Positions 4,432 through 61,332 of a stretch of DNA of 64,000 nucleotides are shown in pieces. The position numbers and the translations under genes are program-made. The notes beneath the pieces were generated by a model that was not told the DNA's origin, made no database searches, and saw only the letters and a program-made list of their open reading frames with translations. This stretch comes from Bacillota bacterium (GTDB taxonomy: Bacteria > Bacillota > Clostridia > Christensenellales > CAG-314), in assembly GCA_023458375.1 (NCBI GenBank), contig JAEWZT010000006.1, positions 85,931 through 149,930 of the forward strand, in the 5' to 3' direction. Position 1 is the first letter of the stretch. Each line of letters begins with the position of its first letter.

Positions 4432-4457
4432 CCCATTTATTACGGGAGGGAATTACC

Positions 4458-5486
4458 ATGCAACACAAACTTAGCGAGGGAATGCTTTTAGACGAAAAAG
4501 GTCGGCTCGTTGAGGCGGGTTACGCCTTTAAAACGGTTAGGAAATATAACAGAAAAGCCGTAAAGGCGGGAAAACTGCGCATAAAAGAATGGGACTACTA
4601 TATAGTAACAAACGGAAAAATCGCCGTCGCGCTAACCGTTGCAGATAATTCTTACATGAGTTTGGTAAGCGCCAGTTTTTTAGATTTTACTAAGCCTTAT
4701 TACAAAACCACCAGCGAAATGAAGTTTTTTACCTTCGGAAAAATAGGTTTGCCGTCAAGCCCCCAAGAGGGCGACGTCATTTACAACAGCGACAGGGTAA
4801 AAATACATTTTATAAAGCAGGAAAACAAGCGTCGCTTAGTGTGCCGCTTTGAAAAATTTGAGGGCGACAAAACCCTTGAAGCAAACATAACTTTAAGCGA
4901 TTTTCCGCAAGAGGATATGGTTATAGCCACTCCTTTTAAAGAGGACAAAAGAGCGTTTTATTACAACAGCAAGGTAAACTGCATGGCGGCGCAAGGTTAT
5001 GTTTCCTTTGGCGGCGAAATATACGAGTTTGACAAAAGCGACAGTTTGGGCACCTTGGATTGGGGGCGCGGCGTGTGGACTTACAAAAACACCTGGTATT
5101 GGGGAAGCCTTTCAACTTATGTTGAGGGCAAAAAAGTGGGCTTTAACATAGGCTACGGTTTCGGCGATACCGCTGCCGCAAGCGAAAATATGATTTTTGT
5201 CAACGGCAAAGCCTACAAAACGGAAGACGTTACCTTTAATATACCCAAAAAAGACGGTAAAGACGACTTTCTGTCCCCCTGGACTTTTACAAGCGGCGAC
5301 GGCGCATTTAACCTTGACTTTACGCCAATAATTGACAGAAAAGATTTTACTAACGCAATAGTGCTTTGTTCCGACCAGCATCAGGTCTTCGGAAAGTTTT
5401 GCGGCACCCTTGTTTTGCCTACGGGCGAAATAATTGTTTTAAAAGACAAATTAGGCTTTGCGGAAAAAGTATATAACAAGTGGTAA
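4458..5486 (+). CDS. DUF2804-like protein (function unknown)
   Basis: 342 aa. The N-terminal IKEWDYYIV motif and overall size recall the DUF2804 family from memory. Not verified. Confidence 0.45.
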   Translation: MQHKLSEGMLLDEKGRLVEAGYAFKTVRKYNRKAVKAGKLRIKEWDYYIVTNGKIAVALTVADNSYMSLVSASFLDFTKPYYKTTSEMKFFTFGKIGLPSSPQEGDVIYNSDRVKIHFIKQENKRRLVCRFEKFEGDKTLEANITLSDFPQEDMVIATPFKEDKRAFYYNSKVNCMAAQGYVSFGGEIYEFDKSDSLGTLDWGRGVWTYKNTWYWGSLSTYVEGKKVGFNIGYGFGDTAAASENMIFVNGKAYKTEDVTFNIPKKDGKDDFLSPWTFTSGDGAFNLDFTPIIDRKDFTNAIVLCSDQHQVFGKFCGTLVLPTGEIIVLKDKLGFAEKVYNKW

Positions 5487-5595: not shown

Positions 5596-5998
5596 ATAAA
5601 TGCACGAGCAGGCGTATCGTTTTTATTAATATGTTTCCATTGCAATCTTACTTTCTTTATCTTCTATTCAAAGGAAGAGGCAATTATTAGCGTTTTGCGC
5701 CAAAGCATTTGTTGTTTGTCAGTGATAAGTTGCCCGCAATAATAGCAGGCAAGTTGTCAATGTCTTTTATCAATACAACGCATATAATTTGGTTATCGTC
5801 GGCAACTTATACAATCTTGGCATTGCGGGCGCGGTAAATATTAGCTTCGGGATAATATCGAAGCGCAAATGTTAAGAAAAACTTTCTGCTCTAAAATCCG
5901 CGCTAAGCGCGGCGTCAAGCCTGCCGAAATCTTTTATATCAAACAAGTTAATTCATTTAGTTCATCAACCTTTTTTATGTATAGGCAACTTTATTATA

Positions 5999-6915: not shown

Positions 6916-7539
6916 TTAAAAACTTATTTTTCGCGCCGTCTAAAATAAATCGGAATATTTTTTGCCGCATTTAAAGCTAATCATTATTGCGGAAATTAAA
7001 GTAAAAATAAAAACTATCAATCGTTTAGGTGAACATTAAGAATATCACTAGACCGCAGTTATTCCAAAAATATCAAGCCGCAGTTGTATTGACAATAATT
7101 GCAACCACACTTTTTGTCGGAGGAAGTTGAAAAAAATTTAAAGCAAAAGCTTTATATTTGCAGTTTGAATACTGCGCTTTAAGCACCCCTATTTCAAAGG
7201 CATTTAAAACTGCTGTTTATATACTTAATAAGAAGCAACGCACCGACGCTTAATCCAAAAAGGGCATAGAAAAAGACTCTCCGCTTTGGGGTAAAGCAAA
7301 AAGTCTTTTTCTATTTGTCTATAAGGAGGGTTGTCATAGAAACTTGGTGGGGTAACCTTGTTTCTATGCTATTATATTACCCATAAATTGTGATAACCAG
7401 GTGATAACGCAATGAAGAATTATTAATGTTTTTCAAACTTTTCCCCGTTGTTTTTTCCTGTTTTTTGAGTTTTGCCGCGTTGCCGCGGCGGCTTTAATTA
7501 TTACGGCTTATAGGGCTGTTTTGCGCCGATTATTTTCTT

Positions 7540-28393: not shown

Positions 28394-28765
28394 TGGCGGA
28401 GGTGGCGAGACTTGCACTCGCGTACCGCTGCGTAACCGACAGATTTTCTCCGTGCGCAGCCTAGTTTCTTTTTATGTCCCCTTTAAAAGCTAGTAGGCAA
28501 GCTTTAAAAAGGGTAATATGTTCTTTGGCGGCACGCCCTTACATAGTGGGGGCGCTGCCCCTTTACCGCTTATAATGACGCTCTTGCCCCCGCTAAACGG
28601 TAAGCGGGGAAGAACGGGCGGCTAATTAAGCCGCAACTGCCAATCTGGTTGATTGGGTGCTAAAATTTTCGTTAGCGTTTAATTTGTTTGCCGTTTTTTA
28701 CGAAGCACGGCGCTTCGGCACGCTTATCAGCCCTTTACCACAACGGGCGAATCTATAACACCCCC
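28394..28765 (-). ncRNA. ssrA: tmRNA (ssrA)
   Basis: On the minus strand, 5' GGGGGTG pairs with 3' CACCTCC (G3:U), followed by G-CCA, with T-arm GCGAG-TGCAAGT-CTCGC. The internal tag ORF (28691..28626) is GCA AAC ... GCG GCT TAA, encoding ANKLNANENFSTQSTRLAVAA*. Confidence 0.85.
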
Positions 28766-46471: not shown

Positions 46472-46692
46472 AAAAAAAGCTATCAGCATAGGGAAAGACC
46501 CTAAATACTAATAGCGCTTCAATTTTATAAAAATTGACAGTAACCCCGCAGCTTATGCGTGGCTCCCAAGGAAAAATCTAGCGGAAAACTTCTTCTCCTT
46601 TCGGCGGAAAACCCCTTTGCGCGTAAAGAGCCGCTCCTCTTATTTTGCCGCGCTACCTTGAATTCCGCTACCTCTATATTATTTAATTTACC
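46472..46692 (-). promoter_or_regulatory. lysine riboswitch (L-box) with intrinsic terminator
   Basis: The minus strand reads AGAGGTAGCGGAATTCAAGGTAGCG...GGAGCGGC...CAAAGGGG...GCCGAAAGGAGAAG...CCTTGGGAGCC...GGGGTTACTGTCAA, which matches the L-box core blocks. The terminator is GCTATTAGTATTTAGGG-tcttt-CCCTATGCTGATAGC plus T7 (46515..46472). Confidence 0.85.
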
Positions 46693-56016: not shown

Positions 56017-59000
56017 CTACCCTAGTAATATTACCTCAAAATCTCTGTAAAAAGTGTAGCTTCCCACCGTTATTTTTGCCCTTAAAACCGTTGAGGAGGA
56101 GGTGCCCGTACCGCTGAATAAGTTTGTGTATCTGTAAACAAAGTCGCTTCCGATTGCAACTTTACTTAATTCTGTTTCTGCGTTGTTTTTTATTTCAAAC
56201 CATTCAATGCCGTATGGGTTGTCTGTTGGGGAAGACGAAACATAAACCTTGCTGGTAAGCAAAGTGTATATGCTGTTTGAAGAACCTATTTCCTTTAAGT
56301 AAAAGAGATAGTTCAATATAGTTATTTCTTCTTGCGTAAGTTCAGTTTCAAAAAGCGTCCTTTCGCCGCTTAGCGTATAATAAATTTCGGGGTACTCGCC
56401 CTTAGCGTTTTTATAGCCGTAATATATTTGCGAAAAAGTCGCAAGGTTGTTTTGGTAATTCATACCCGTTTTATGCAAATCAAGGTAACTCAGCTTCTTT
56501 AAGTTGAGATTGGTAAGCGCCCCTCCCTGCGTTAGGTTTCCGTTGCCCGAAAGGTCCAAATAGGTCAAATTTTTAAAGACGCCTATTAAGGAAATATCGC
56601 CCAAAGAGGCGTATTGCATCACCAGCTTTTCCAGCTTGGTATTATAAAGAGTAATTCTGTTGAAAAAGTTTCTGGCGTTATTTGCGCTGGTAAATATCGG
56701 CGTTAAGTCGCTGGGAGCGCCAAACACATAAAGCTCTTTAAGGTTTGTAAAATAGCTAAGCCCCTTTGCGTAAGCGTCAATTATGGTAACGTAGGGGTAG
56801 TAAAGCGTTTGGTAGTATTCCTCGTCGCTTATCTCTTCAATTCTATGAGCTTTAAAGAAATATTCGCTGTTTTTGCTGTCGTAACTTAAAATATACGCTA
56901 GGTTTTGCGTAAAATCGCCGTCTTCGCCCATATATAAATAGACGCTTCCCAATTGGCTTTGCTGCGCGCTTGTAAGCGCATTATACATTTCCTGCGAAGA
57001 AGATAATTCCGTTACGGAAGTTTCTTCAAAGTAATAGTTGGGCGCGTTAAAACTTAAACGGTAATAGGCGTTTTTTGTATACGCCGCGCTGCCTGTGCCG
57101 GTAAATTGATAAATTGAGCCTATCTGCGTTTTGTCGGCGCTTGCAATGACGCCATTCATGCCGCGCAAAATCTTTTGGGTAATATTGAGCAGGCTAAGGT
57201 TTTCCGTTTCGCCCTGAGCGTTTTGGTAAAACTGGTTGAGTAGCGCTATGCCGTCGTCGGTAAAGACGTCAACTTGCGGCACGTTGGCGTTCCAAAGGGT
57301 TGCAAAACCGCTATGTGCGGCTGGCAGAGCCTTGTTCCAAAACTCAAATAAAACATCTTTTTCTTCAAAAGAAACGGTAGCTTTGCCGTCGGAGTAATTT
57401 GAAGACGTTGAAGAAAGGTAACTAATGCCCGCCGCTGTTCCCGCGGTGGAAATGCCGCTTCCCTTTGCCCAGTTGAGCAGCGTATTGTAGCGGTTGGCGA
57501 TTATGCTTTTCATTGCGGAAACTATTGCGGTTTGAAGCGCGTCGTCGTAAGTGTATTTAGCAGTAGAAGCTAAACCCGCGTCAAAGTAGCCGTAAGTTGT
57601 GCTGCCGGAACTGAAAGTTCCGTCGGCTATATAGCGGCATAGAATGTAAAGGTGTCCGTTGGTATAAGTTGAGGTGGTAGTGCCCGTATAGATGTATCCT
57701 TTGCGGTAATTGGAGCTTCCGCTATTGAGGTTGGTGGTCATTTGGCTTTCGCTGGCGTTTGTAGCGGGGGTAAGCAAAACGTAAAAATCCGAGTTACTTG
57801 GCAGGCTCAAAGCGTTCCTTGCCGATTCCCAAGCATTAGCAAACTCTTTAAAACCTATATTAGAGCCGGCATACGCCGCTACAATGTCGGCAATTTCCTG
57901 CGTTGTAACGCCGGGGTTTATCCTTTCCGTTGTAGTCGCTGTGCTTTTGCCCAGCGACGCGCCGTAATCTGACATCAAAGTGTATTTTTTTGTAAACCCC
58001 AAAAACGTGGTATGGTAGCTTGTGCCCCTTGCCCAGTCAATATATTCCGAAAAGGTGTCGGTAGGAGTGCTTGTGGTGTTAAAGGGCAGCGAAAGGTTTA
58101 CAAACTTCGCCAAAAACTGCGTAATGCCGTTTGTTGGGGAATTGAGCAGTAAATCAATATCTTCTGTTCTTAAATTGTATGCTTTTGTTGTCGCGGCGCT
58201 CCATTGTGTGTCAAAGCCGTCGTATCTGCCCAAAAATGCCGCTATCGCCTCTTTTTCTTCCGCCGAAATAAACACATTGCCGTCGGAAACGTTTTGGGCA
58301 TAATCACTGCCCTCAAAAAAGGACATAACCGACTGGACTTCCTGCCCCGCGTTGGTTATGGAAGTCGCCCAGCCTAAAAGCGCCGTAAACAGCTGTTCGG
58401 GAGAACCGTTTTGAAAAACAAGCGCCGAAACAAGTTTGACGTCCCTCATTAAGATATAGTCCCAATTTGCAATGGAACTTACGTCAACTTCGCCGTCAAT
58501 TATGCCAATATCCAACTGCTCGTTTTGGGGTAGCTGCTGCCATACTTGGAGCTTTATGGCGTTATATATTTCCTCGTTTGAAAAGCCCTCCGAGTCTTGT
58601 TTCAAAACTGCGGGCGCGTTAAAGTATAGATTTCTGCTTTCGTCCACCCCTTCCAAAGAGGGCTTGTAAACCCTTACCGTTAAAGCCGCCGCCGTGTCTG
58701 TGGAATTAAAATTGGAGGCGTTTATGCCTATGATATATTTACCGCTGCCGTTAGAGGTTACAGAGGACACAATACCCTGCGAATAGGCGTAGCTGTATTC
58801 TATATCAAAGCCGTTATAGCTTGAAGGAAGAAGGAAATCTCCCTTTTCCACCTGCATACCGTAAAGCACGCGGGTGTCAATGATATTTTGCAGCACGTCA
58901 ACGCCCGAAAGACAGCTTGAAACGTAGTCAAAAACGTTGTCCAATAACTCCGCGTTTTCGCCAAGCTCAATTTTAATGCCTATGCTGCCCGTGTATGATT

Positions 59001-60876
59001 CCGTGCCGAAATACCCCGTTACGCTAACTTGCGCGTAAACTTGAAAAGTGGGTTCTTTTAAATATATCTCCGTCGGTTTTGTAGCTTCCAAAGCGTCGGC
59101 GTCGCCCATTTGCAAATAGTAAAAGCTCGGGTCAACCTGGTATTGCAAAGCGGTAAGCCCCAGCTCCTTGCCCCCCGTAAACTTGGTGTAATGATTTTCA
59201 TCGCTTTCGTCAACTACGGGCAAAACAAAGGAAGAACCCGTTTGGGGGTAAACGTCTAAAAGCTTTATGGGGTTTAAACGCGCAAGCAAATACAAAAACT
59301 TCATTTCGTTGTCTTGGCGCACCACATAAAAACGGAACACTTCGTAATAAAGGTCTTCGTTTATCTTAATTGTCGCCGTTAAGAATACTTCACCCTCCGC
59401 CTTTTCTTCTATTTTCCCGCTGTTGGAAATCAAGCTTGTATTGCTGCTTTTCCAGCTTATCGAAGCGTTGAGCGCCTCAATTCTTAAAGGCAAAAAAAGG
59501 TCATAGGTAATGTTGGGCACGCTGCCGTCCCCGCTGCCGCCGGGAATATGCTGCAAGTAATCAGCCTTCAAAGCTTCAAAAGCGCCCTCGTCTTCCCCCA
59601 CCAGTTTAAAAATAATCTTTTCGCCGTCAAGCGTTAAAGAAGTGTTGACTGAATTGTAAAGGGAAGGCGGGGTAAGCAAGCCCGTAGAGTTTTCAAAAGA
59701 ATAGGGCGCGTCAAGCGGAATTTCAAAGGCAATGTCGCCTTTCATGTTTTGGCAGTAGCAATAAAGCGCCCCCAAAGGCTCAAAGCTTTGCGCGCCGTAA
59801 AGCCTTAGATTGGAAAGTTTTGACAAAAATCTCTCTTTCATGAGCTTTGCGGCAAGCGCGCCGTTATACTGTAAACCGTTTTCGCCGTCGCTAACAATGT
59901 CAAAGTTATAAAACGCATAATCTTTTACGCTGTCGGCAAAGTCAACAACGCCAAAGGGGTTGTTTAATAAAAAACCGCCCGCGTCGGCTGATTCGCCCTC
60001 GTTTACAAAAACCTTGCTTGAAATAAAATTGCGCGAGCTTTTTACCGTTAAAATGCCTTGGTGCAATAAATTGATGTAAAAACCGTTAAAGGTAATATGA
60101 TGCCCCCTTAAATCTATGGCGCAGGGATTGGAGGCGTTTAATGCTTGCAATTGAAGCTTTTGCAGCTTTGTTAAATATTCGGCGTCTTCTGAATCAAGGT
60201 CGGAAGCTAACTCGCTTAAATCAATATCAGCCGTTAAAATAATTGTCTTAAAAATATCGCTCTCTGCCGAAATATCGTAAAGCGCGTAGCGCAAATCCTT
60301 TGCGGAACTTACAAATATAACCTTGTTTACGTCGTAGTTTTGCGCGTAGCTTAAAATATTTACTTTGCAGCTTTTATCTTCAAAATAAGAGCCGTCAGCC
60401 GCGTTATGCAGCTCAAAGGTCAGAGTATGCTCTTCGGAAGAGGGGGAAGACGCGCTTCCCTTTAAAAGATAAAAATCATTATCAATTTTGTGTTCGCCCT
60501 TTTGAGCAAGCTGCGCCAGCGTCCCCAAATATTCGCCGTCAAAATAGACTAAAATTACCTTTTCAAGACCGTCCTCGCCCTCGGCGCGTTGGTCCATTAA
60601 AGCAATTCCGAAAAAATAATGATAATACTCGGAAGAAGTGTTTGAAATGGTTATGGGAATCTCTTTCTTTTCCCCGGGGTATGTAAACTTAAAATCGGTA
60701 ACCAAGTTTTCAAAGGAAGTTGAAACGCCCCAATCTATTTCGTGAATAATTACGTCGGAACCTATTGGCACGCTGCTTGTAAAAAACGCCGCGAAAACGG
60801 ATGTGGCAAACACTGCCGTCAGCAGAAGTACCGCCGCTATTGTTAAAGCTATTGTTTTTATGCGCGTATTGTTCAT
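56017..60876 (-). CDS. giant secreted protein with TasA-like N-domain and C-terminal LRRs (gene 1)
   Basis: 1619 aa. The signal ends ATSVFAAFFTSSVPIGSD and is followed by a TasA-like beta domain (FKFTYPGEKKEIPITISNTS). LRRs are at about 56446..56763 (FTNLKELYV, NLTYLDLSGNGNLT, LSYLDLHKTGM). Cysteine-poor (a few Cys only), with no LPXTG motif. Confidence 0.6.
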   Translation of the reverse strand: MNNTRIKTIALTIAAVLLLTAVFATSVFAAFFTSSVPIGSDVIIHEIDWGVSTSFENLVTDFKFTYPGEKKEIPITISNTSSEYYHYFFGIALMDQRAEGEDGLEKVILVYFDGEYLGTLAQLAQKGEHKIDNDFYLLKGSASSPSSEEHTLTFELHNAADGSYFEDKSCKVNILSYAQNYDVNKVIFVSSAKDLRYALYDISAESDIFKTIILTADIDLSELASDLDSEDAEYLTKLQKLQLQALNASNPCAIDLRGHHITFNGFYINLLHQGILTVKSSRNFISSKVFVNEGESADAGGFLLNNPFGVVDFADSVKDYAFYNFDIVSDGENGLQYNGALAAKLMKERFLSKLSNLRLYGAQSFEPLGALYCYCQNMKGDIAFEIPLDAPYSFENSTGLLTPPSLYNSVNTSLTLDGEKIIFKLVGEDEGAFEALKADYLQHIPGGSGDGSVPNITYDLFLPLRIEALNASISWKSSNTSLISNSGKIEEKAEGEVFLTATIKINEDLYYEVFRFYVVRQDNEMKFLYLLARLNPIKLLDVYPQTGSSFVLPVVDESDENHYTKFTGGKELGLTALQYQVDPSFYYLQMGDADALEATKPTEIYLKEPTFQVYAQVSVTGYFGTESYTGSIGIKIELGENAELLDNVFDYVSSCLSGVDVLQNIIDTRVLYGMQVEKGDFLLPSSYNGFDIEYSYAYSQGIVSSVTSNGSGKYIIGINASNFNSTDTAAALTVRVYKPSLEGVDESRNLYFNAPAVLKQDSEGFSNEEIYNAIKLQVWQQLPQNEQLDIGIIDGEVDVSSIANWDYILMRDVKLVSALVFQNGSPEQLFTALLGWATSITNAGQEVQSVMSFFEGSDYAQNVSDGNVFISAEEKEAIAAFLGRYDGFDTQWSAATTKAYNLRTEDIDLLLNSPTNGITQFLAKFVNLSLPFNTTSTPTDTFSEYIDWARGTSYHTTFLGFTKKYTLMSDYGASLGKSTATTTERINPGVTTQEIADIVAAYAGSNIGFKEFANAWESARNALSLPSNSDFYVLLTPATNASESQMTTNLNSGSSNYRKGYIYTGTTTSTYTNGHLYILCRYIADGTFSSGSTTYGYFDAGLASTAKYTYDDALQTAIVSAMKSIIANRYNTLLNWAKGSGISTAGTAAGISYLSSTSSNYSDGKATVSFEEKDVLFEFWNKALPAAHSGFATLWNANVPQVDVFTDDGIALLNQFYQNAQGETENLSLLNITQKILRGMNGVIASADKTQIGSIYQFTGTGSAAYTKNAYYRLSFNAPNYYFEETSVTELSSSQEMYNALTSAQQSQLGSVYLYMGEDGDFTQNLAYILSYDSKNSEYFFKAHRIEEISDEEYYQTLYYPYVTIIDAYAKGLSYFTNLKELYVFGAPSDLTPIFTSANNARNFFNRITLYNTKLEKLVMQYASLGDISLIGVFKNLTYLDLSGNGNLTQGGALTNLNLKKLSYLDLHKTGMNYQNNLATFSQIYYGYKNAKGEYPEIYYTLSGERTLFETELTQEEITILNYLFYLKEIGSSNSIYTLLTSKVYVSSSPTDNPYGIEWFEIKNNAETELSKVAIGSDFVYRYTNLFSGTGTSSSTVLRAKITVGSYTFYRDFEVILLG

Positions 60877-60887
60877 CCTATCCTTTC

Positions 60888-60926
60888 AAAAAAAAGCCGC
60901 ATTAACAAAAAACTGCTAATTACGGC
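60888..60926 (-). terminator. second intrinsic terminator in the operon leader
   Basis: The minus strand reads GCCGTA(A)TTAGCA-gttttt-TGTTAATGCGGC followed by T8. It ends 11 nt before the ATG, directly adjoining the GAAAGGA RBS. Confidence 0.65.
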
Positions 60927-60937
60927 AACTGGCTGTC
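60923..60937 (-). repeat. 15-nt direct repeat copy 2 (GACAGCCAGTTGCCG)
   Basis: Exact copy of the aptamer 3' strand, positioned as the 5' flank/arm of terminator 2. Confidence 0.9.
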
Positions 60938-60938
60938 C

Positions 60939-61050
60939 AAAATAAAGAAAAGCGCCGAAATAACTAACGTTATTTTCGGCAACTGGCTGTCTCTTTCGGG
61001 ACCCTATAGCTTTGCGTCGCCACCTTACGGATAGCTTTGCTTTGATTCAC
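60939..61050 (-). promoter_or_regulatory. c-di-GMP-I (GEMM-I) riboswitch with terminator 1
   Basis: The minus strand reads CAAAGCAAAGCTATCC-GTAA-GGTGGCGACGCAAAGCTATAGGGTCCCGAAAGAGACAGCCAGTTGCCGAAA, with a GNRA-capped P1 hairpin and the hallmark ACGCAAAGCUAUAGGGUC and CAGCCAGUUGCCGAA blocks. Terminator 1 is GCCGAAAATAAC-gtta-GTTATTTCGGC followed by TTTTCTTTATTTT. Confidence 0.85.
60977..60991 (-). repeat. 15-nt direct repeat copy 1 (GACAGCCAGTTGCCG, within aptamer)
   Basis: Identical to 60923..60937. The two copies are spaced 54 nt apart. Confidence 0.9.
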
Positions 61051-61056
61051 AAAAAG

Positions 61057-61085
61057 ATTATACAGCTCCTTTACAGTTTTGTCAA
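61057..61085 (-). promoter_or_regulatory. consensus sigma-A promoter (TTGACA-17-TATAAT) of the riboswitch/operon
   Basis: On the minus strand, TTGACA is at 61085..61080, followed by a 17-nt spacer and TATAAT at 61062..61057. The upstream flank is AT-rich and UP-like. Confidence 0.8.
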
Positions 61086-61255
61086 TAATAATATCAATGC
61101 TTTTTATTTCCCCTTGCCGTTAAACTATTAACTTTTATTACTTTTGGCTGCATTAAAAACGCAGTTTAATTTTTTCTTAGAATATAAGTTGTTTTTCCAT
61201 TTGATATACTATGTATTTTTAAATAAAATGTTTTGAGCACAACTAAACCAAAAAA

Positions 61256-61285
61256 GAAGCTTAAAACAGCTTCTTTTTGGAGCTA
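61256..61285 (-). terminator. intrinsic terminator directly after the tRNA-Thr fragment
   Basis: The minus strand reads AAGAAGCT-gtttta-AGCTTCTT followed by TTTTGG. Confidence 0.7.
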
Positions 61286-61287
61286 GT

Positions 61288-61332
61288 GGCCGGATTTGAA
61301 CCGGCAACCTGCGCATTACGAATAAAAAAAGT
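61288..61332 (-). other. tRNA-Thr(CGU) 3' fragment (anticodon loop to CCA); att-site-like remnant
   Basis: The minus strand reads TTCGTAA-TGCGC-AGGTT-GCCGG-TTCAAAT-CCGGC-CACTAGC-T-CCA. The 5' anticodon-stem strand, D-arm and acceptor 5' strand are absent; TTTTA appears where GCGCA is required. Confidence 0.75.

Follow-up and report, generated by a model that had tools for sequence, protein, structure and literature searches.

A putative GEMM-I riboswitch in which one aptamer is followed by a repeated module of aptamer 3' strand and terminator

In riboswitch theory, as well as in the published catalogue of complex arrangements (PMC9481103), the regulatory unit is an aptamer with one expression platform, and a sharper response is taken to need duplication of whole riboswitches or aptamers. 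Such duplications are represented by 347 tandem doublets and 12 triplets with pseudo-cooperative behavior, for instance the triple tandem of Bacillus thuringiensis; the review of these architectures sorts them by complete aptamers, and holds no class in which one aptamer is followed by serial platforms (PMC9481103). Here a stretch of 64,000 nucleotides (nt) from a Bacillota bacterium (assembly GCA_023458375.1, contig JAEWZT010000006.1, positions 85,931 to 149,930; hereafter the window) was analysed, in which the leader of a gene for a protein of 1619 amino acids (aa) carries a single aptamer of the GEMM-I (cyclic di-GMP-I, c-di-GMP-I) class, followed by two modules, each composed of a copy of the aptamer 3' strand and a predicted intrinsic terminator. 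The initial annotation of this DNA had known of no description of a duplicated partial aptamer/terminator module, and a search of the literature on c-di-GMP riboswitches, tandem terminators, multiple platforms and partial or ghost aptamers agreed with it, as no repeated module of this type was found described there. The repeated-module platform is thus apparently undescribed.

The 3' strand of the aptamer, the 15-mer GACAGCCAGTTGCCG, is present exactly twice, 54 nt apart (Table 1; all sequence statements for the window refer to its minus strand), and the coordinates and sequences with which this duplication had first been reported were all correct. No third GACAGCCAGTTGCCG was found in the 64 kb when up to two mismatches were tolerated, and two matches were obtained in none of the dinucleotide shuffles (0/100). 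Extended to 21 nt, the repeat keeps 90% identity, and the 3' arms of the two hairpins resemble each other too; what was duplicated, and later diverged, was therefore a unit of ~54 nt that comprises the 3' strand, the hairpin and the U-run. In both copies the GCCG is the base of a predicted terminator hairpin followed by a U-run, as the initial annotation had proposed; with RNAfold, the first hairpin (T1) folds at -13.2 kcal/mol (z = -3.7 vs shuffles) and the second (T2) at -14.5 kcal/mol (z = -4.1). T1 and T2 are therefore both predicted to have what characterizes an intrinsic terminator, a stable GC-based hairpin and then a U-run, and the U8 tract of T2 was located at the distance from the start codon that had been described.

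The assignment of the aptamer to GEMM-I, made originally from the letters alone, was borne out by the covariance model of Rfam (RF01051), which gave a full-length match (positions 1-87) of 51.8 bits, above the gathering score of 35 (E = 3e-7 in 64 kb). It was the only RF01051 match in 60800..61200, even at E <= 10, and the sole credible family there, with the clan rivals RF03167 and RF03168 scoring below RF01051 on the same region. The aptamer lies directly 3' of a promoter and 100 nt 5' of the 1619-aa secreted-protein gene, and this placement between promoter and ATG makes it part of a 5' leader, as expected of a riboswitch; transcription probably starts near 61050 (-). The equivalents of A47 (GACGCAAAG) and C92 (UUGCCG) are both kept. 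The first arm retains its GNRA loop, as annotated, in the form of GUAA, and the second arm is truncated to GGGUC-CCGAAAGA-GAC, with about 11 consensus positions deleted. This second arm had been regarded as unusually short; short it is, but not unusual, as apical inserts of 5-10 nt are ordinary for the subfamily and were counted in 41/83 leaders of the census described below. No space for a tetraloop receptor is left in the short arm, though the GUAA tetraloop is present; docking of GNRA tetraloop and receptor is common in the GEMM-I family, but not universal. By covariance model the element is a GEMM-I member that deviates at G20 and has no receptor arm. A tandem riboswitch comprises at least two complete aptamers, each with an expression platform of its own, and the element falls outside this definition, its second unit carrying only 15 nt of aptamer.

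The same architecture was observed in a second lineage. A genome-wide pattern scan (36 matches, mostly chance, in non-riboswitch DNA) led to a leader from a Clostridia metagenome-assembled genome (MAG), L024, where the same aptamer is followed by three modules, AGACAGCCAGTTGCCG with T1, AGACAGCCAGTTACCG with T2 and AGACAGCCAGTTGCCA with T3, and U6-U7 runs stand after each hairpin. The spacing between promoter (TTGACA-17-TACAAT) and aptamer in L024 equals that in the window, and the protein encoded downstream is the closest relative of the window protein (36% identity, N-terminal 245 aa). The hairpins of all five modules, two from the window and three from L024, still fold at -12 to -19 kcal/mol despite their differing sequences, with some differences affecting both sides of a pair: at position 5 of the window stem, A-U of T1 corresponds to U.G of T2, and the basal pair is A-U in T2 of L024 and G-C in the other modules. 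The window species was represented by four independent assemblies, all with an identical two-module leader. Every homologous gene that was reachable carries a GEMM-I aptamer in its leader, including those with a single module (Table 1), in which part of the aptamer 3' strand doubles as the terminator 5' arm, in accordance with ON logic. In two of the latter, L004 (2690-3000, +) and L165 (880-1200, +), ~300 nt of well-conserved, GC-richer leader extend from the terminator to the start codon.

Conservation of the second copy in homologous leaders was a check proposed with the initial annotation, and L024, with its three modules, bore it out: the 11-mer GACAGCCAGTT is identical in 5/5 modules and the next three bases are RCC, whereas the 38 nt 3' of that are only ~62% identical across modules, even with optimal pairwise alignment. 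Because the 11-mer is invariant while the hairpins are ~62% alike, the sequences indicate that the extra copies are under selection; the probability of an intact copy, a rough value that assumes independent sites and copies, was 0.005 for one extra copy and ~2e-7 for all three. An unbiased census was made of metagenome leaders sharing the aptamer core (at least 120 loci, 105 unique leaders). Among the matches listed, an extra same-strand 8-nt core within 200 nt occurred only in the window species, in L024 and in leaders with complete tandem aptamers (L062, four; L148, two). Given this census pattern and the four identical assemblies, the extra copies cannot be put down to ordinary platforms or to faulty assembly. 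A search for the double repeat in viral contigs gave 0 matches. A second GACAGCC in L039, considered as an extra copy, was discarded because it forms the 3' arm of a terminator of the usual kind, in an OFF-type design. The four complete GEMM-I aptamers of L062 (~110-390, +) are arranged head to tail with an 80-nt period directly before the gene, without terminators between them, and are one more than in the listed triplets (PMC9481103).

Table 1. Positions of the leader elements and genes of the window, and of the GEMM-I leaders used for comparison.
Feature	Coordinates	Strand	Remarks
Sigma-70 promoter, TTGACA-17-TATAAT	61057..61085	-	Consensus match 12/12
GEMM-I (c-di-GMP-I class) aptamer, built with copy 1	60975..61051	-	Rfam RF01051
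First aptamer arm with GUAA (GNRA) tetraloop	61014..61040	-	RF01051 alignment, pairs checked
5' strand of second aptamer arm, AGCUAUAGGGUC	61000..61011	-	RF01051 alignment, pairs checked
Copy 1 of aptamer 3' strand, GACAGCCAGUUGCCG	60977..60991	-	Contains C92 equivalent at 60979
Predicted terminator 1 (T1), GCCGAAAAUAAC/GUUAUUUCGGC	60954..60980	-	Base is GCCG of copy 1
T1 tail, GCUUUUCUUUAUUUU	60939..60953	-	Interrupted U-run; from sequence
Copy 2 of aptamer 3' strand	60923..60937	-	15-nt repeat
Segment within copy 2, GACAGCCAGUU			
Predicted terminator 2 (T2)	60896..60926	-	Base is GCCG of copy 2
U8 tract of T2	60888..60895	-	Stops 11 nt short of ATG at 60876
Ribosome-binding region, GAAAGGAUAGG	60877..60887	-	From sequence
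Regulated gene, 1619-aa protein	56017..60876	-	Signal-like N-terminus, aBig_2 domain, weak LRR matches
Second gene, 1077 aa	52779..56012	-	Downstream of 1619-aa gene; then two small open reading frames
L014 (Omnitrophota), two-3'-strand GEMM-I leader	4445-4594	+
L027 (Nitrospirota), two-3'-strand GEMM-I leader	5711-5802 and downstream	-
L041 (unclassified MAG), two-3'-strand GEMM-I leader	5219-5349	+
L004/L165, homologous leaders			One module
L006/L007, homologous leaders			One module
L164, homologous leader			One module
L160, homologous leader			One module

The arrangement could correspond to a reiterated expression platform, in which one aptamer 5' half would serve two modules, each consisting of a copy of the aptamer 3' strand (the second-arm 3' strand plus the ligand-pairing C) and an intrinsic terminator, the GCCG of each copy providing the bottom four base pairs of its terminator. 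Because the RCCG contains the ligand-pairing C, the ligand-bound aptamer formed with a given copy would block the terminator of that copy. Ligand bound to the copy-1 aptamer would first withhold the GCCG, so that T1 would stay open and the polymerase would pass; when copy 2 emerges, the aptamer 5' strand would re-pair with it, T1 would close and the aptamer pairs would be identical; the GCCG of copy 2 would now be unavailable to T2. The gene would be reached only if the ligand-bound state were present at every checkpoint, and less leak and a steeper response would be expected, like those of tandem complete riboswitches, at 54-70 nt per extra checkpoint. The ON direction, the re-pairing with copy 2 and the serial gating are what we infer from these features, and we consider the chances about even that the leader is a transcriptional ON riboswitch whose single aptamer 5' half gates terminators in series. 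The ON logic put forward in the initial annotation fits, as the RCCG at the terminator base holds the C92 equivalent and the terminators of the single-module relatives overlap the aptamer 3' strand. More tentatively, the leaders may represent a distinct architecture, in which a single 5' half is handed from copy to copy (two here, three in L024) and the ligand is read successively, each transfer possibly being paid by closure of the preceding terminator; the GEMM-I leaders with two 3' strands from Omnitrophota, Nitrospirota and others would then be versions of the same principle.

An inverted-repeat search of the leader for a complement to the copies yielded none besides the aptamer 5' strand AGCUAUAGGGUC. 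G60938, which precedes copy 2, can pair with C60999 and add a C-G pair to that helix; the same position is A at copy 1, giving a C.A mismatch, and the corresponding pair is U-A in L024. Nearest-neighbour energies, which cover secondary structure only and exclude ligand and tertiary terms, were downhill for the move of the aptamer from one copy to the next with closure of the intervening terminator, both in the window (-12.4 to -22.0 kcal/mol) and in L024 (-13.8 to -24.8 to -38.6 kcal/mol). In the window ensemble, once copy 2 exists, the 5' strand pairs with copy 2 (mean pair probability 0.3-0.67) and hardly with copy 1 (<0.005), and the findpath barrier from the P3(copy 1)+T1 state was about 6 kcal/mol. 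Infernal aligned the aptamers of L014 and L041 by way of copy 2 and left copy 1 as a loop, which shows that an aptamer built with the distal copy is a topology compatible with the family model.

Several points weigh against serial gating. Characterized c-di-GMP-I aptamers (Vc2) let go of their ligand very slowly, and the weakest point of the mechanism is that a copy-1 complex locked by ligand might be too slow to swap in the ~30 nt available before T2 completes; without a swap in time, T2 would therefore terminate. The ligand-free ensemble of L024 holds copy 1 paired (0.55), and never copy 2 or 3. Anti-copy segments, which would strip the used copy, gave p = 0.01 only for module 2 of L024, with p = 0.36 for the window and p = 0.74 for module 1 of L024. 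The architecture was found in two lineages only, and their aptamer 5' strands are identical, so that they offer no covariation between this strand and the extra copies. A closing P1 helix was sought between the ~10-nt 5' leader and the sequence 3' of C92 in the window and L024, with nothing convincing, and without such a helix gating would depend on the C92 region alone. Finally, a gapless terminator scanner called 0/5 hairpins of the window and L024; it missed T1 and T2 because each stem has a 1-nt bulge, and RNAfold was used instead.

Some candidate features were set aside during the analysis. Equilibrium hand-over holds in the window and fails in L024, and was rejected as a conserved thermodynamic property; the anti-copy segments, significant in one of the three modules tested, were dropped as a general feature; and the alternative pairing UGGCGAC/GUUGCCG, present in the RNAfold minimum free energy (MFE) structure, is impossible in L024 and was therefore treated as chance. 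As a separate observation, GUGCAAGACAG of L024 (7058-7068; upstream flank plus start of copy 2) has its complement in CUGUCUGCAU (7108-7117, +), which sits just 3' of the U-run of T2; the duplex (-13.7 kcal/mol, p about 0.01) wraps module 2 in a longer helix.

Among the other explanations, an attenuator-type relay through 1:2, 2:3 and 3:4 pairings is unlikely, in our view, but the best of them. The ligand would hold the GCCG of copy 1 and the freed T1 3' arm would block the T2 5' arm; without ligand T1 would form, with T2 forming too as a back-up, and copy 2 would never be part of the aptamer. When the copy-1 aptamer was constrained, the MFE structure at 128-143 nt, which goes down to -27.1 kcal/mol, did join copy 2 and the 5' arm of T2 to the 3' arm and tail of T1, and the cross-duplex of T1 (3' arm) with T2 (5' arm; -13.1 kcal/mol, p = 0.002 vs shuffles) has a T1:T2 counterpart in L024 (-11.3 kcal/mol, p = 0.009). 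Such cross-complementarity follows automatically from tandem duplication, however, and the complete T2 wins (-34.6 kcal/mol) over an estimated barrier of only about 7 kcal/mol. Moreover, the corresponding T2 to T3 relay fails in L024 (-3.9 kcal/mol, p = 0.6), and the relay does not explain why the 11-mer, a segment that takes no part in the terminator stems, is invariant.

It also seems decidedly doubtful that copy 1 is only a transient first partner, stripped mainly by T1, with the copy-2 aptamer gating T2 as the operative switch, an arrangement that would lengthen or delay the sensing window and not add a checkpoint. The window ensemble strongly favors copy 2, which has the additional C-G pair with the aptamer 5' strand, an extended T1 helix swallows copy 1, and the U-run of T1 is interrupted; in L014, L027 and L041, besides, copy 1 is accompanied by a non-terminator hairpin and only then come copy 2 and a terminator. 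Yet T1 and T2 of L024 have clean U6-U7 runs and its ensemble favors copy 1, while copy 1 of the window is perfect, with C92 intact, and judging from this should bind ligand. Pairing of the T1 tail GCUUUUCUUUAUUUU with the upstream A-rich AAAGAGACAGC, moreover, was no better than in shuffles (p = 0.36). A module 2 with no sensing role, whether it arose by neutral tandem duplication or serves as a fail-safe terminator that lowers expression without being regulated, or with direct repeats that act as a protein-binding site or allow slippage deletion restoring a single-module switch, is very improbable, for although one module suffices in most relatives, more than one is found in two lineages only and the 15-nt direct repeat would permit precise loss of module 1, the 11-mer is invariant against ~62% identical hairpins, the architecture is kept in lineages with 36% identical proteins, a strong T2 (U8) free of regulation would shut off the intact 1619-aa gene that directly follows, and no polymorphism was seen among the four assemblies.

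With regard to the ligand, the nucleotide aligned to the ligand-contacting G20 of Vc2 is an A in the window aptamer, at 61041 (-). A20 has been tied to GEMM-I variants that are selective for cyclic GMP-AMP (cGAMP) or bispecific, including an example from Clostridium beijerinckii (PMC6140456, PMC9481103). Across the subfamily census, position 20 is G in 64 and A in 18 of the 83 scorable leaders; A was also found in L024 (~6952) and L004 (~2609), and G in L006, L148 and L160. With A in this position, c-di-GMP, 3'3'-cGAMP or both are candidate ligands. The class originally assigned, c-di-GMP-I, stands as a family match, but c-di-GMP may not be the sole ligand.

The regulated gene and the one downstream of it form the kind of surface-protein operon that is a frequent target of cyclic-dinucleotide riboswitches. 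The family of the 1619-aa protein is rare, with 11 matches in a full-length search, and the search with the 1077-aa protein returned no match besides itself. Within the ribosome-binding region, GGAUAG (60884..60879, -) is perfectly complementary to CUAUCC (61031..61026) in the 5' strand of the GNRA arm, and this pairing turns up in the full-leader MFE structure; L024 has an analogue (CUGUC with GGCAG beside the ribosome-binding site), and the single-module relatives have none. The pairing could be an extra translational layer or chance. Just upstream of the leader, at ~61312..61251 (-), lies a 3' fragment that resembles a transfer RNA (tRNA) or transfer-messenger RNA (tmRNA), with the T-arm GCCGGTTCAAATCCGGC, then ...CTCCA, and a hairpin plus T-run directly after; it gave a weak partial tmRNA match and no tRNA call by ARAGORN, and may be what is left of an integration site next to the riboswitch operon. 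Elsewhere in the window, an ordinary-looking lysine riboswitch (46504..46684, -; 73.9 bits) and an ordinary-looking tmRNA gene (28394..28765, -; 143 bits) were detected.

If the serial ON switch operates as proposed, a single aptamer would be reusable at successive checkpoints by strand exchange, which would be a very compact way to low leak and digital control. The leader would then be a naturally occurring system in which to test co-transcriptional strand displacement, and its design could be copied in synthetic biology. Annotation limited to aptamers, as in Rfam matches, overlooks this diversity at the level of the platform.

Classical leader attenuators, such as the trp leader, work through alternative 1:2, 2:3 and 3:4 hairpins. 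They share with this leader the alternate pairing of related segments, as in the T1 3' arm with the T2 5' arm, but their sensor is the ribosome, whereas here it would be a ligand-binding aptamer, and both the 1:2 and the 3:4 hairpins are terminator-like. The leaders L014, L027 and L041 also have, like the window, one 5' half and two copies of the 3' strand, the second being the 5' arm of a terminator; in contrast, the hairpin after their copy 1 has no U-run, their terminator covers the whole second-arm strand, and their copy 1 departs further from the consensus, by one nucleotide too many or by the lack of CC. Glycine riboswitches of the singlet type that have a 'ghost aptamer' (PMC5066625, PMC6239177) likewise keep a selected partial remnant beside a complete aptamer, although that remnant gives tertiary contacts, and is neither an alternative strand nor fused to extra terminators.

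The single GEMM-I ON switches (L006, L148, L160 and L164, and the cGAMP-responsive pilM switch, PMC9262584) display the same competition for a strand, with an aptamer subfamily and promoter layout like those of the window. They have one terminator that overlaps 7-10 nt of the second-arm 3' strand, whereas in the window the overlap is restricted to the RCCG and the unit is repeated. True tandems of the same aptamer subfamily (L062, L148 and L076) look quite unlike the window leader. Tandem complete c-di-GMP-I riboswitches likewise place serial terminators responding to the same ligand before one gene, with surface or adhesion functions as targets and a sharper response expected; each of their units, however, has a complete aptamer, while in this leader there is one aptamer, and the extra units consist of its last 15 nt and a terminator, in 54-70 nt.

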